Below are positions 59,105 through 63,024 of a DNA stretch of 64,000 bases, piece after piece. Source of the DNA: Vulcanimicrobiota bacterium (lineage in GTDB: Bacteria; Vulcanimicrobiota; Vulcanimicrobiia; Vulcanimicrobiales; Vulcanimicrobiaceae). Each line of letters starts with the position of its first letter. Within the stretch, counting starts at the first letter, position 1. Under the pieces are notes generated by a model. It made no database searches and was not told the DNA's origin. It saw only the letters and a list, made by a program, of their open reading frames with translations. The translations under genes were made by a program, and so were the position numbers. The stretch is from assembly GCA_963820825.1 (NCBI GenBank), contig CAWGBN010000005.1, forward strand, positions 171,566 to 235,565, in the 5' to 3' direction.

Positions 59105-60228
59105 TCAGCCCGAGCGCTTCTGGACCGCCGCGTGTCTGGCCTGGGCTAGGGCTAGTGCGTCGCCGACCCGGTCGATCATGGCGCTCTTCGCTCCGGCTAC
59201 GACGTGGCCATAGACGTTGAGAGTTGTGGACGCCTGCCCGTGGCCTATGACCGCCGAAACAGTATTCACGTCGCTCCCTTCAGCGAGGGCTGATGTAGCC
59301 ATGAAATGGCGGCACGAATGTAGGGTCGCTCCCTTGATTTCCGCGAGGCGCACCAGCTTCGCGAATGCCTTCGAGAGGCCATCGAGATCCGGCGGACCAC
59401 CGGCCTTATCAGCAAACACGAAATTTCTATCCTCGTAAGCGCCGTGCTCTGCGTGCAGGTTTTCAGCAGCTTGCTTTGCCCGCAACGCCCTCAGCGCTTC
59501 AACGGCTGCCGCTGACAGCGGAACGACTCGTTCACGTCCGGTTTTCGTAGTCTTCAAGAAGAACCCGCCGCGTCGATCTTCGCCAAAGGCTTGCCGCACG
59601 AAGATGCACCGATTTCGGAAGTCAACGGAATCCCATTGGAGCGCGGCCAGTTCGGCACGCCGACAACCAGTTGACAGAGCGATGAGAAGAAATGTCTCGT
59701 AGCCTGATCCTTCTGCTAGAGCGAGCAGCGTAGCCGCTTCATCGGCGGTCAGTGCCCGTGCTCTTGACGGGTTTGGACGTGGCGCTTCGATAAGGTTGGC
59801 AACGTTACGCCCTACTAGCGACATCCGCTCCGCCCATCGAAGCATTCGATGAATAAAACGATGCACCCGAACAAGGCTTGTCCCGCCCAACGGCTTACCG
59901 ATTCGTTTCTTTTTGCGATCTTCGCCAGAGGATAATTTACGAGTGTAGACGACAGGCTGGGAGCCTAGCTTAGCTAACAACTCTGCAATGTGAGCAGGTT
60001 TAAGTTTGGAGACGACGATTCCGCCCAACGCTGGCTCGACGTGATGCTTCCAGTGCTCTTCATATCGCGCATAGGTTGCAGGAGCAAGTCGGCTTTTCAC
60101 GTCTTGAAAGAACTTGTCTGCAACTTGCGAGAGCGTGAGTGTCTGAGTAGGAAGGTCGAAGCCCTGGTCGCGTGCTTGGAGCGCGTCCCGCTCCGCTTTT
60201 TGAGCTAGTTCCTTGGTGTCAAAGGGTT
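59105..60228 (-). pseudogene. Phage/ICE tyrosine integrase lacking its N-terminus (cut by an IS3 element)
   Basis: TGCRRAEL, KTTKT, LHSCRH, IGH, LNVY catalytic set. The ORF start in the track lies within the IS. Confidence 0.88.
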
Positions 60229-60240
60229 TGAGCCCATTTC

Positions 60241-60540
60241 TTAGTCCACCGGCGATTGTGGGATTGGTGTAGAAAAGTTTTCGACGAACTCCTTGGGCGT
60301 AAGATAGTTTAGCGACGAGTGCGGCCGAACCTCGTTGTAATCCACGAGCCATGCATCGGCCTCTTCGCGGATCTGCAGGAGAGTCCTGAAGACTTGCACG
60401 TTGAGGAACTCGTCGCGCACGCGAGCGTTGAAGGACTCGATCCAGGCGTTCTGTGCGGGTTTCCCGGGATCAATGAAGTGCAGCAGAACATTGTGATCGA
60501 TCGACCACTGCAGCATCGCGCCGGCGACGTTTTCCGGACC
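60241..60540 (-). pseudogene. 3' fragment of IS3 OrfB
   Basis: GPE...FIDPGKPAQNAWIESFNARVRDEFLN..YNEVRPHSSL. Confidence 0.9.
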
Positions 60541-60620
60541 GTGATACATACAAGACGGGGCGCTGCCCCCATGGCGAACGGAGGTGTATCTGACTCATCT
60601 CCGCTGGAGGCAACGACCCT

Positions 60621-61883
60621 ATGGCAAAGTTCCGTGCTGCTCCAACGGCGCCCGCCTGGCTCGCAATCGACGTCGCCAAAAACCGACACGTGGCGCTGCT
60701 GGAGGACGAGGCCGGCATTCGCCGGCGTTTGACAGTTCCAAACACGCAAGAAGGTTTCGACGAGTTGGCAGGGATTCTGGCGCCGCATCTTCCCTGCGAG
60801 GTCGCGCTGGAACCAACCGGAGACTATCACCGACCCCTGGCGAACTTCTTGCTCCGGCGAGGCCACCGCGTTCATTTCGTATCGTCGATCGCTACAAATC
60901 GGACGAGAGAAGCGCTGTTCAACTCGTGGGATAAAAACGATCCGAAGGATGCGCAGGTGATTCTGCATTTGCTCAAGAGCGGTACAACGCAGGTGTTCGC
61001 CGATCCACTGCAACGTGGCAACCAAGATCTTCAGGAACTGCTCGGTACCTATCGGCAGATCACCGACCGAAAGACGCGAGCCTACCATTCGCTGATGACG
61101 CACTATTTGCCGCTGTACTTCCCGGAAGCAGAGCCCTTCCTGAGCAATCCGCGCGGCGAGTGGTTCTTGGAGGTCATGCGCATAGCGCCATGCCCTTCCA
61201 CGGTCCTTCAATATACCAAAAGGACATTCGTCAAAAGGTTTACTGCAGCGGGAGGGCATTTTACATCTCGGCAAAGTCTCGTCGCCAGCTACTACGAAAT
61301 TGCCAAGGAAAGCGTGGGAATTCCAGTGGCGGCGGATTCGCAGGCCGCCCAGATGTTCCAACTCGCGATTGAGCAGTACATCGGCCTCATGAAGCTTCGA
61401 CGGCAGCTTCAGGAGCTCATTGACGCACAACTCGAGAACAACATCGATTATCAGCGCCTGCGCTCTATCCCTGGAATCGGCCCTATTGTTGCTCTAACGG
61501 TTCTCGCTGAAGGCGGAGATTTACGCCGCTTCAGCCACCATCGCAAATTTCTTAACTACTGTGGCCTTTCTTTGTCGACGATGCAATCCGGAACGTCACG
61601 CGGCCGACCGCAGCTCTCCAAACGCGGCAATGCTCGACTGCGATGGGCCTTCTGGATGGCAGCCAATGCTGCCATCAATCAGCGCCGAAACTCGTTTCGG
61701 AAAAAGTACGACGACTACGTTCGTCGCGATCCACTGGATGCCGATCTCAAAAGAAGAGCGTATGTCGCCGTAGCAGCGAAGATTGCGCGCGTCGCTTACG
61801 GCTTGATCAAATCTGGAAAAGAGTACCGCCACTATTTCGAAGCGGCGGTGCACGACGGGAGAATCCCTTCGCTGGGCCGTTGA
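60621..61883 (+). CDS. IS110-family DEDD recombinase/transposase
   Basis: AIDVAK, ALEPTG, KNDPKDA, SIPGIG, QSG catalytic-serine region, SKRGNARLR. GGAGG RBS. Confidence 0.95.
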   Translation: MAKFRAAPTAPAWLAIDVAKNRHVALLEDEAGIRRRLTVPNTQEGFDELAGILAPHLPCEVALEPTGDYHRPLANFLLRRGHRVHFVSSIATNRTREALFNSWDKNDPKDAQVILHLLKSGTTQVFADPLQRGNQDLQELLGTYRQITDRKTRAYHSLMTHYLPLYFPEAEPFLSNPRGEWFLEVMRIAPCPSTVLQYTKRTFVKRFTAAGGHFTSRQSLVASYYEIAKESVGIPVAADSQAAQMFQLAIEQYIGLMKLRRQLQELIDAQLENNIDYQRLRSIPGIGPIVALTVLAEGGDLRRFSHHRKFLNYCGLSLSTMQSGTSRGRPQLSKRGNARLRWAFWMAANAAINQRRNSFRKKYDDYVRRDPLDADLKRRAYVAVAAKIARVAYGLIKSGKEYRHYFEAAVHDGRIPSLGR

Positions 61884-62004
61884 GGCGACTACGACCTCGT
61901 AGATAATGCTCGGATCTCCCGATGGCAGCAAACTCCGTTTTGAGCTCGGTGAAGGCTCGTTTCCGAGACCTTGTGTCATCATGGTTGGAGCTATTGCGTC
62001 GTCG
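61857..62004 (+). ncRNA. Predicted bridge (seek) RNA with target-binding and donor-binding loops
   Basis: Two stem/internal-loop/hairpin modules (61857-61920, 61920-62004). Loop segments match both sides of the target and both sides of the donor junction. Confidence 0.8.
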
Positions 62005-62095
62005 AGGGGCATCTCGGCAAGGGTGTGCAAGCTCGGCTTTGCTGTCGACGGGCATCGTTATGCCTACTAGTGGGGTTGACTTTCGTACTTAGCTC

Positions 62096-62650
62096 GTTAT
62101 CAACGCGAAGGCGCGTGGGATAACCGCGGATCTGGGCGATGTCATCGAGCGTTCGAATTACGCGGCGGCTGGTGATCGAAAAGTCTGGGTCGACCGCGAG
62201 ACCTTCGCGGCTGAAGCGGTCCTCGATCGTCAGCAACCGCACTTTGCGCTTGGTCATGAGGATTTCGTGCATGAAATCCAGTCCCCATTCTTCATTGAGC
62301 TTTGTCGGAGCCGGTGAAACGTTGCCGCGCACCAATCGCACGCGTCGCTTCTTGCGCGGTCGCACCTGCAATCGCTCATCGCAATACAGGCGGCGCAGGC
62401 GTTTGTGGTTCATCACGAGGCCTTCACGCTTGAGCAGGATCTTAAGCCGGCGCCATCCGAATCTCGGCCGCTCTTGCGCAATGCAACGCAACCGATCGCG
62501 GACGTGCTCGTCGCCGGGGCGTTTGCGTGGTTTGTATCGTACGGTCGGTCGGGGGCAGGTCGCGAGGCGGCACGCTTGCCGCTGGCTGATCCCCTCGGCC
62601 TCTAACGCCCTCACCGCTTCCTTGCGCGCTGAGGGCCCCACCCGTTTTTT
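62096..62650 (-). pseudogene. 5' fragment of IS3 OrfB
   Basis: ISQRQACRL, RPRFGWRRL, WGLDFM, GYPTRLRVDN, breaking exactly at the IS110 end. Confidence 0.9.
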
Positions 62651-62906
62651 CGAATCACCTCGGACATCGCGCGGATCTCGAGGGCTTGACGCGCGATGAT
62701 GCGCTCCATCTGCGAGTTTTCGGATTCGAGCTCTTTCAGACAGGTGAGATCGCTGATGTCGAGCCCGGCGTATTTGCTTCGCCACAGTCGCAGCGTGTTG
62801 ACGTGAACGCCGTGTTTGCGAGCGAGCTCAGCTGCGGATCGGCCGGCGTCGAGCTCTTGAAGGATCGCGACGATTTGCGCTTCGGTGTAGCGCTTCGCTT
62901 GCGCAT
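62611..62906 (-). CDS. IS3 (IS407-like) OrfA (small indel near start)
   Basis: KRYTEAQIVAIL..ELARKHGV..WRSKYAGL..LKELESEN. Confidence 0.88.
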
Positions 62907-63024
62907 GCGGGTCTCCTTTGCAGGCCATCTTGGCCGGAAAACCACAATTCCCATTGGACTAGATTCCGGGGCTCAAACCCAAGGGGCACTTCCTGCAGCT
63001 CTGGTATCATAAAGTAGAGCACTA

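Follow-up and report, generated by a model that had tools for sequence, protein, structure and literature searches.

A predicted two-loop bridge RNA in the right end of an IS110-family insertion sequence that splits transposase catalytic codons

How does a mobile element come to lie within the catalytic codons of another mobile element's transposase, and what directs it there? The question is raised by a 64,000-nucleotide (nt) stretch of contig CAWGBN010000005.1 of a Vulcanimicrobiota bacterium (assembly GCA_963820825.1, positions 171,566 to 235,565 of the forward strand; hereafter the window), in which an IS110-family element of 1,553 bp, 60542-62094 on the plus strand, splits orfB of an IS3-family insertion sequence (IS) that lies on the minus strand. 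The element is flanked by a single CG on each side and has no target-site duplication. On the sequence evidence set out here, it is very probably an IS110-family insertion sequence with a two-loop bridge RNA encoded in its right end. The data cover the limits of the element, its empty sites, the covariation of the RNA fold, the covariation of guides with element tips, site specificity within the genome and a target motif common to the clade.

The recombinase carries the Pfam domains PF01548 (E = 8e-21) and PF02371 (E = 9e-28), scores 221 bits against NCBIfam NF033542, 'IS110 family RNA-guided transposase' (cutoff 140), and matches the solved structures of IS621 (8wt6, E = 4e-19) and ISCro4 (E = 4e-18). 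Its serine motif, GLSLSTMQSG, aligns to GLTPRRYESG of IS621, the fourth position being L, not P. The right end extends 211 nt beyond the stop codon of the gene and the left end is only 79 nt long. An earlier note on this DNA, made from its letters alone, had proposed an IS110-family recombinase served by a two-loop RNA; these matches, together with the covariation of both loops described below, bear the proposal out. All of the strings on which that note relied are found where it placed them, namely CCGGACCGT at 60534-42, CGTTAT at 62095-100, CTGGGCCGT at 61872-80, the four guides and the stem arms.

The limits of the element are visible within its own genome, which holds four copies that are 99-100% identical and share their tips while occupying three different flank contexts (Table 1). 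The predicted empty site, TTTTCCGGAC-CG-TTATCAACGCG, is uninterrupted in two other copies of the window's IS3 in the same genome, so that the empty target reconstructed in the earlier note is seen twice more, and an uninterrupted copy of the target of L002 is also present. A contig of soil-metagenome run X5 joins 60539 to 62095, skipping 1,555 bases, a weaker observation (90-95% alike, with 35 letters on the shorter side). The same element, with 2 differences in 276 nt, is found in a contig of run X1 at a further flank, ...TGAACTCTGAACCGT, where the site is CTGAAC-CG-T. One of the four copies, L004 (G000:C6:628007-629562, minus), has the IS3 context of the window copy, with flanks identical over 75 nt on the left and 39 nt on the right, and its recombinase gene has decayed, bearing clusters of substitutions and four indels of one base each; it may represent either a duplicated composite or an old second insertion, and an assembly error is possible too.

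Relatives were sought in one genome per species, which gave 601 pattern matches, at least 583 of them encoding a relative, and the best 80 loci were examined. Protein identity among these is 45-78%, and their hosts are Eremiobacterota (the closest), Acidobacteriota, Nitrospirota, Alphaproteobacteria, Legionella, Planctomycetota, Bdellovibrionota and others; plasmids, sphingomonad and other, also carry relatives at ~48% identity. Conservation from the last codons of the gene onward is found in all examined relatives. The RNA alignment, made without L002-L004, which are near-identical to the window, comprises 60 distinct sequences from 62 candidates, L012 and L041 having been dropped as truncated or mis-anchored. 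In L012, L064, L074 and L075 the RNA region stops after the left donor guide and unrelated sequence follows, as in truncated elements or after later insertions.

The RNAalifold consensus of the 60 relatives consists of two stems, each enclosing an internal loop with a capping hairpin, and the minimum-free-energy fold of 61855-62006 recovers the same two-module shape. Compensatory change is seen in 11 of the 12 pairs of stem 1 (95.1% of cells paired) and in 7/7 pairs of stem 2, which form three short helices; the capping hairpins of the target and donor loops each have 7 pairs, 6 of them compensatory (95.9% and 95.7% paired, respectively). Over the whole fold, compensatory change is found in 30/34 pairs and 94.6% of cells are paired, against 79.7% in shuffled alignments (0/500 reach the observed value), and sliding the pairing partners by 1-3 columns leaves only 36-49% paired. 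Two details of the fold drawn in the earlier note have to be revised. Its hairpin CTACG-ACCT-CGTAG shows no covariation (66.8% paired compared with 67.4% shuffled, with 489/500 shuffles as high) and is rejected, the conserved hairpin being GAGGCG/CGaCCTC. Of its stem for module 2, the inner part is retained in the consensus, and the pairing of 61920-24 with 61999-62004 is absent there, 61912-24 forming the 3' arm of stem 1.

The predicted RNA begins inside the recombinase gene, and its overlap with the last 10 codons and the stop codon is probably why the relatives conserve a C-terminal tail, ...G(R/K)(I/T)(P/S)S, that coincides with the 5' arm of stem 1 and the left target guide. Where stems 1 and 2 meet, the window copy is without one C after 61923 (CCCGAT-GGCAGC, compared with CCCGATCGGCAGC); the extra C is present in L002, L003 and L004 and in contigs of runs X4 and X5, and the RNA region is otherwise identical in the four copies. 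Many relatives (L017, L019, L035 and others) have, ~20-40 nt past stem 2, a motif such as GGTGGAAGCCACTTGG that repeats the 5' arm of stem 1 (…AAGTGGAAG…) and could compete for its 3' arm; the window has no clear equivalent.

The strongest link between this RNA and the DNA comes from the donor loop. At 54 loci, the two variable positions of the left donor guide (alignment columns 135-140) match the cognate right-end tip in 107/108 cells, compared with 55.6 when shuffled (0/5000), and, ahead of the core, the guide falls into the classes AGCT, AGTA, AGGA and AGCC. The right donor guide (columns 184-189) faces the first four bases of the left end at 49 loci, whose left junctions were identified by an open frame on the flank starting G-x-E/Q/K, with 190/196 Watson-Crick pairs, 5 wobbles and 1 mismatch; shuffled pairings have a mean of 157.8 and 0/5000 reach the observed value. 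Its variants ATC, ACC, ACT, GCT and ATT pair respectively with the tips TGAT, TGGT, TAGT, TAGC and TAAT, and a sixth, GTT, faces TAAC in L083 alone, where the tip was read by eye. The match of the donor guides to the tips, seen by the earlier note in a single element, thus extends to the clade. Immediately after the right donor guide, G61984 is invariant (ATGG) and complementary to the invariant C left of the target core, not to the right-end tip (T, A or C). By analogy with the handshake guides described for IS621 (PMC13626964), dinucleotides beside the right guides that pair with the partner DNA once the top strands have been exchanged, it may be a handshake-like position. No equivalent handshake guide is found in the target loop, where column 95 varies without relation to the right-end tip in a by-eye reading of the alignment.

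These covariations bear on two other ways of accounting for the 3' block. It could belong to the recombinase mRNA, as an attenuator or a structured 3' untranslated region, or could consist of DNA sites bound by protein, the guide matches then being by-products of conserved element ends. The overlap of stem 1 with the stop codon could link folding to translation, and the motif past stem 2 in many relatives (such as GTGGAAGCCACTTGG), a repeat of the 5' arm of stem 1, offers a possible alternative pairing. Such a role, however, does not explain why bases in the loops should covary with element tips that lie 90-1,400 nt away, or should equal insertion sites, and homologous recombinases have been shown to use RNAs of this kind (Durrant 2024; Siddiquee 2024), which leaves this explanation very improbable. 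Alternatively, module 1 alone could act, as a seekRNA-type target finder of 70-100 nt, with module 2 being a separate RNA or an end-recognition site at the DNA level. The RNAs of 70-100 nt purified by Siddiquee 2024 (PMC11187229) had, as described in that paper's main text, target matches only; the ends given here for the predicted RNA are those of the consensus fold, and on the plus strand no terminator-like site follows stem 2. We nevertheless consider this arrangement unlikely: stems 1 and 2 abut without a spacer, the modules covary as one block in the 60 relatives, and the donor guides, which covary with the tips, occupy an internal loop built like that of the target module. A single bridge RNA with a target loop and a donor loop remains the preferred reading in what follows.

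Within the genome, the left target guide discriminates among candidate sites. At L002 and L003 the insertion site (CTGGGC-CG-T) is identical to this guide, which differs from the window site at two positions, both of them G-U-type wobbles in the pairing of RNA with the bottom strand, as the earlier note had read them; at the X1 site, both differences set a guide G against a target A. In the right target guide, the two U face the core G and the A/G position. The constant octamer CCRTTRTC occurs at 218 sites in the genome, 214 unoccupied and 4 occupied. When G-U is allowed, 10 of the 218 fit the guide's five variable positions, and these include 4/4 of the occupied sites; among unoccupied sites the guide fits 6/214 with wobble and 1/214 without. 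Treating three of the occupied sites as independent, the chance of this outcome is, by our own arithmetic, 120/1,703,016, or about 7e-5. The six unoccupied fitting sites (G000 C8, C9, C2, C6, C7) also indicate that the genome's targets are not saturated. One of the six is perfect and lies in the uninterrupted copy of the element targeted by L002, and two are in uninterrupted copies of the window's IS3.

Among relatives the target guides follow the flanks more loosely. The right target guide contains ATAATG in 56/60 relatives, and the right flank is TTGTC in 35/54, TTATC in 18/54 and TTGTA in 1/54. L026, L045 and L054 have ACAATG in this guide, all with a TTGT right flank, so that C-G replaces U-G; the agreement fits pairing, yet TTGTC is in any case the flank in 35/54. 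The left target guide has a constant 3' part (G-CCGT), and relatives differ mainly at positions -6 and -8, the only positions at which cognate flanks match better than non-cognate ones (0.49 versus 0.36 and 0.41 versus 0.27, respectively). In 49 unique guide-flank pairs, from which thirteen loci with unreliable left junctions had been removed by hand beforehand, cognates match 2.55 of 7 variable positions compared with 2.21 when shuffled (p about 0.001), and at least 7 contiguous matches are found in 8/49 cognate pairs compared with 5% of non-cognate pairs (3/5000 permutations). The covariation of guide with target that the earlier note had proposed as a check is therefore present at -6 and -8, is weaker than that of the donor guides, and is accompanied by a poor match in many relatives. 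The idea that wobble governs the left target guide in general was rejected, G-U having raised cognate and non-cognate scores alike; what suggests a role for wobble is confined to the sites of this genome and to where the two U stand in the right target guide.

The matches of the window might also be fortuitous, four short strings falling into place by chance in GC-rich sequence. All four guide matches occur in order in 3/200,000 shuffles of 61850-62010, a figure that rests on the left guides (the 7-mer is found in 2.5% and the 6-mer in 4.7% of shuffles). A number of points weigh against a bridge RNA and, in part, in favour of chance. With wobble allowed, each right guide is found in ~53% of shuffles and is not significant in the window alone, and the stability of the fold is ordinary, not above that of shuffles (z = -0.36 and -0.34). 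Because these window-alone statistics are insufficient by themselves, support was taken from relatives, and there the left target guide has only 1 contiguous match from its 3' end in 19/49 pairs and 4 in 18/49, while allowing wobble gives cognates no more gain over non-cognates than strict matching does. The shuffle statistics ignore phylogeny, and donor classes follow clades, so that independent changes are few (~4 in the left donor guide and 6 in the right). The junctions of relatives were located by patterns that require the left tip to read T, purine, purine, pyrimidine and the core at the right to have its G. An Rfam scan of 60300-62400 with E up to 10 returned only a chance match to a long non-coding RNA; the sequencing runs that contain the stretch are seven DNA runs with small shares, and no RNA run is among them; and the source genome is a bin of 9 contigs, 2.98 Mb and 85% complete. 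Even so, given the rarity of four ordered matches, the covariation in relatives and the site specificity within the genome, chance is scarcely credible.

The flanks reveal what the clade enters. Their consensus, TGAACTCnGnnCC(G/A)T followed across the insertion by T(A/G)TC, reads on the opposite strand as GAY AAY GGN nnN GAG TTC, that is, D-N-G-x-E-F. We translated the flanks and scanned 97 of 101 fragments with Pfam, the omitted ones being two from L001, scanned separately, and the duplicates L033 and L075. A match to rve or rve_3 was obtained for 75/97 fragments, from 51/63 loci, and the N-terminal fragments end at position 72-73 of the 102 in the rve profile. Twelve loci have no rve-type match. 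Among them, L042 has an IS481-type N-terminus, and in L039 (703-3795) the insertion lies in a gene for a pyridine-nucleotide disulphide oxidoreductase (Pyr_redox_2 / Pyr_redox_dim), at ...LALD/NG/REL..., an off-family insertion indicating that DNA is recognised and not a gene family. The remaining ones mostly have no Pfam match (L007 has a weak DUF5916 only) and still read D/NG at the junction, mostly followed by x-E-F. Judged from these flanks, the point of entry in this clade lies after the Asp codon and before the Asn-Gly codons of the motif that holds the second catalytic Asp of rve-type transposases, so that other insertion sequences are split and inactivated.

The dinucleotide at the junction is not uniform. 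At the left junction (49 loci) it is CG in 27, CA in 20 and CC in 2; at the right junction it is CG in 54/54, with G fixed by the search pattern, and when that pattern was relaxed the first match was CG in 63/66, two of the three others being off the known right end and looking spurious. Left-junction CA corresponds to a target Asn codon AAT instead of AAC. With CA or CG at the left and CG at the right, it is apparently the left arms that retain the second base of the core; a donor CG could then recombine with a target CA, and the U of both right guides would tolerate either base. The nearly invariant right target guide, GAUAAUG, faces each of the two synonymous positions of Asp-Asn (GAY AAY) with a U, and at the third bases of the Gly and Pro codons the left target guide offers G or U. 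Through G-U pairing at such synonymous sites, one guide could reach the D-N-G-x-E codons of many rve-type transposases. We therefore put forward, tentatively and as somewhat short of an even prospect, that this is a distinct, old IS lineage that parasitises insertion sequences across many phyla, with a bridge RNA that follows a protein motif and not one DNA sequence.

Table 1. Features of the element, its predicted RNA and its surroundings in the window, and junctions of its copies in the genome
Feature	Position	Strand	Remarks
Left CG core copy	60540-60541	+	preceded by target-left CCGGAC; single CG at uninterrupted sites in same genome
Left end, 79 nt	60542-60620	+	begins TGAT (donor-right), partner of the right donor guide
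Recombinase gene, 420 aa	60621-61883	+	DEDD RuvC-like domain and Tnp domain with ...QSG serine motif
Predicted bridge RNA	61853-61998	+	limits are those of the consensus fold, stem 1 5' arm to stem 2 3' arm
Stem 1, 5' arm	61853-61866	+	pairs with 61912-61924; within coding sequence (...DGRIP)
Left target guide CTGGGCCGT	61872-61880	+	same sense as target top strand, predicted to pair with bottom strand; includes core CG and T
Target-loop capping hairpin GAGGCGA / ACGACCTC	61882-61898	+	61882-88 with 61891-98
Right target guide GATAATG	61902-61908	+	predicted to pair with top strand C-G-T-T-A/G-T-C
Stem 1, 3' arm	61912-61924	+	consensus fold
Stem 2, 5' arm	61925-61936	+	pairs with 61987-61998
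Left donor guide AGCTCG	61943-61948	+	identical to right-end tip and core (62091-62096)
Donor-loop capping hairpin AAGGCTC ... GAGACCTT	61952-61972	+	61952-58 with 61965-72
Right donor guide ATCATG, then GT	61978-61985 (ATCATG 61978-83)	+	predicted to pair with core CG and left-end TGAT
Stem 2, 3' arm	61987-61998	+	consensus fold
Right CG core copy	62095-62096	+	followed by target-right TTATC
IS3-family transposase, C-terminal part (starts GPEN...)	60241-60539	-	rve_3, E = 6e-26
IS3-family orfB, N-terminal part (ends ...RLRVD)	62097-62785	-	HTH_21, and rve to profile position 73/102
IS3 orfA	62611-62928	-	same interrupted insertion sequence
Window copy and L004: left flank, core / core, right flank			...TTTTCCGGAC-CG / CG-TTATCAAC...
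L002 copy: left flank, core / core, right flank			...AACTCTGGGC-CG / CG-TTATCGCA...
L003 copy: left flank, core / core, right flank			...AACTCTGGGC-CG / CG-TTGTCAAA...

The following mechanism would account for the insertion. A bridge RNA of ~150 nt would be encoded by the right non-coding end, from within the last recombinase codons, and would be produced by being cut from the recombinase transcript and bound by the protein. In its first loop, CTGGGCCGT would pair with the bottom strand of the left half of the target and the CG core, and GATAATG (61902-08) with the core and the right half, TT(A/G)TC, on the top strand. In its second loop, AGCTCG and ATCATG would do likewise for the sequence ...TTAGCT-CG-TGATAC..., in which the right tip meets the left tip once the element has been excised as a circle. 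If the protein works as its homologue of IS621 does, a DEDD/serine recombinase tetramer would hold both loops and carry out the chemistry of strand exchange at the core, and the circle would insert without duplication into DNA coding for a D-N-G-P-E stretch, the region of the second catalytic Asp of rve-type transposases. On the same analogy the recombinase may be termed programmable.

Transcription from the circle would be a further element of this picture. TTGACT (62076-62081, plus strand), a -35-like hexamer, lies 13 nt from the right-end tip, TTGAC is found 12-13 nt from the tip in 26/55 distinct right-end tails, and the left end offers a weak -10 counterpart, TGATACAT. By analogy with published junction promoters, TTGACT is a candidate for the -35 half of a promoter that would be assembled across the circle junction. 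The contigs from four of the seven DNA runs gave no read across that junction. The sole match of a promoter scan (61880-61907) was rejected, as it falls within the target loop, where the conserved GATAAT probably gives rise to it.

Two neighbouring features may be recorded. A GC-rich hairpin, GGGGCGCTGCCCC, at 60555-60572, 14 nt inside the left end, was flagged as terminator-like on the minus strand and is retained with altered loop bases in Eremiobacterota relatives. Beyond the element, an open reading frame of 415 aa for a tyrosine recombinase (Phage_integrase, Phage_int_SAM_3; 59105-60352, minus strand) adjoins the interrupted IS3 and overlaps the last ~110 nt of the frame of the orfB fragment.

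How does this element compare with known systems? It resembles IS621 (PMC11208160; 8wt6-8wt9) in its recombinase domains and serine motif, in a 2-nt core common to target and donor, in the absence of a duplication, and in a target loop followed by a donor loop, both simple internal loops with the left guide 5' (bottom strand) and the right guide 3' (top strand). Unlike in IS621, whose RNA is in the left end, the RNA here would lie behind the gene in the right end and overlap the stop codon. The core is CG as opposed to CT, the recombinase has 420 aa compared with 328 aa in the solved IS621 chain, the target is a transposase coding motif as opposed to REP sequences (known for IS621 from reference titles), and a handshake-like dinucleotide is visible only in the donor loop.

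The location of the RNA instead recalls the IS1111 group, which has short left ends, long right ends and subterminal repeats of 7-17 bp, and in which a bridge RNA was predicted in the right end of 93% of members (Durrant 2024, PMC11208160); the downstream non-coding regions of IS1111 elements yield seekRNAs, and some IS110-type elements also have theirs downstream (Siddiquee 2024, PMC11187229). Like members of that group such as ISEc11, ISPa11 and ISKpn4, the element has a short left end and a long right end that would encode a guide RNA downstream of the gene, and close to its right tip stands a hexamer resembling a -35 box, as would suit a junction promoter. The likeness extends in part to subterminal inverted repeats, which reach at least 7 nt in 13/39 relatives; in the window element, however, the best such repeat within the first and last 30 nt is 5 nt, equalled in 87/200 shuffles, and no terminal pair is found among its 25 longest inverted repeats. 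The recombinase, at 420 aa, exceeds the 330-350 aa of IS1111 transposases and falls within the 395-455 aa that the IS110 subgroup reaches (Siddiquee 2024, PMC11187229). According to the same paper, the IS110 and IS1111 groups have their top- and bottom-strand matches in opposite orders; here the bottom-strand match is 5' of the top-strand match, as in ISEc21 and unlike in IS1111 seekRNAs, assuming that the paper's top strand is that of the element's orientation. The simple internal donor loop also differs from the multi-loops of many IS1111 members (Durrant 2024, PMC11208160). Judged by sequence, the element thus mixes features of the two groups, with an IS1111-like RNA location and IS110-like recombinase size, guide order and simple loops, and we assign it to the IS110 family without assigning it to the IS110 or IS1111 subgroup.

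The closest precedent for the target is ISEc21, an IS110-family element that enters the same kind of site, a transposase catalytic motif (PMC11187229). In contrast to the present element, its non-coding region is upstream and its transposase has 358 aa, and the published case concerns a few enterobacterial IS3 members as opposed to a clade in many phyla; the two were compared by description only. Its target is described only in the seekRNA paper and its preprint, among the ISEc21 literature considered. The 3' location of the RNA and the kind of target are accordingly already in print, so that of the CG core and 3'-located guide to which the earlier note drew attention, both are present and the location of the guide is not new. 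In the literature searches made, and in the main texts of the cited papers, we found no cross-phylum clade dedicated to D-N-G-x-E-F codons and no account of U placed at synonymous sites. What appears to be new is a whole clade, in many phyla, inserting into D-N-G-x-E-F codons, with U at the synonymous sites in its right target guide.

In this well-supported bridge-RNA system, the sequence directly gives the guides, the core and the two DNA partners. Natural reprogramming across 60 relatives is raw material for the engineering of bridge recombinases, for which a two-loop RNA behind the gene, a CG core and natural tolerance of G-U pairs and of G/A at the second core position would be of interest. 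For the biology of these elements, it points to one IS lineage that systematically disrupts the catalytic motif of the commonest transposase superfamily in many phyla, a conflict between mobile elements previously noted, in the main texts considered, only for ISEc21. If ISEc21 is unrelated, the targeting of transposase motifs would have arisen at least twice.

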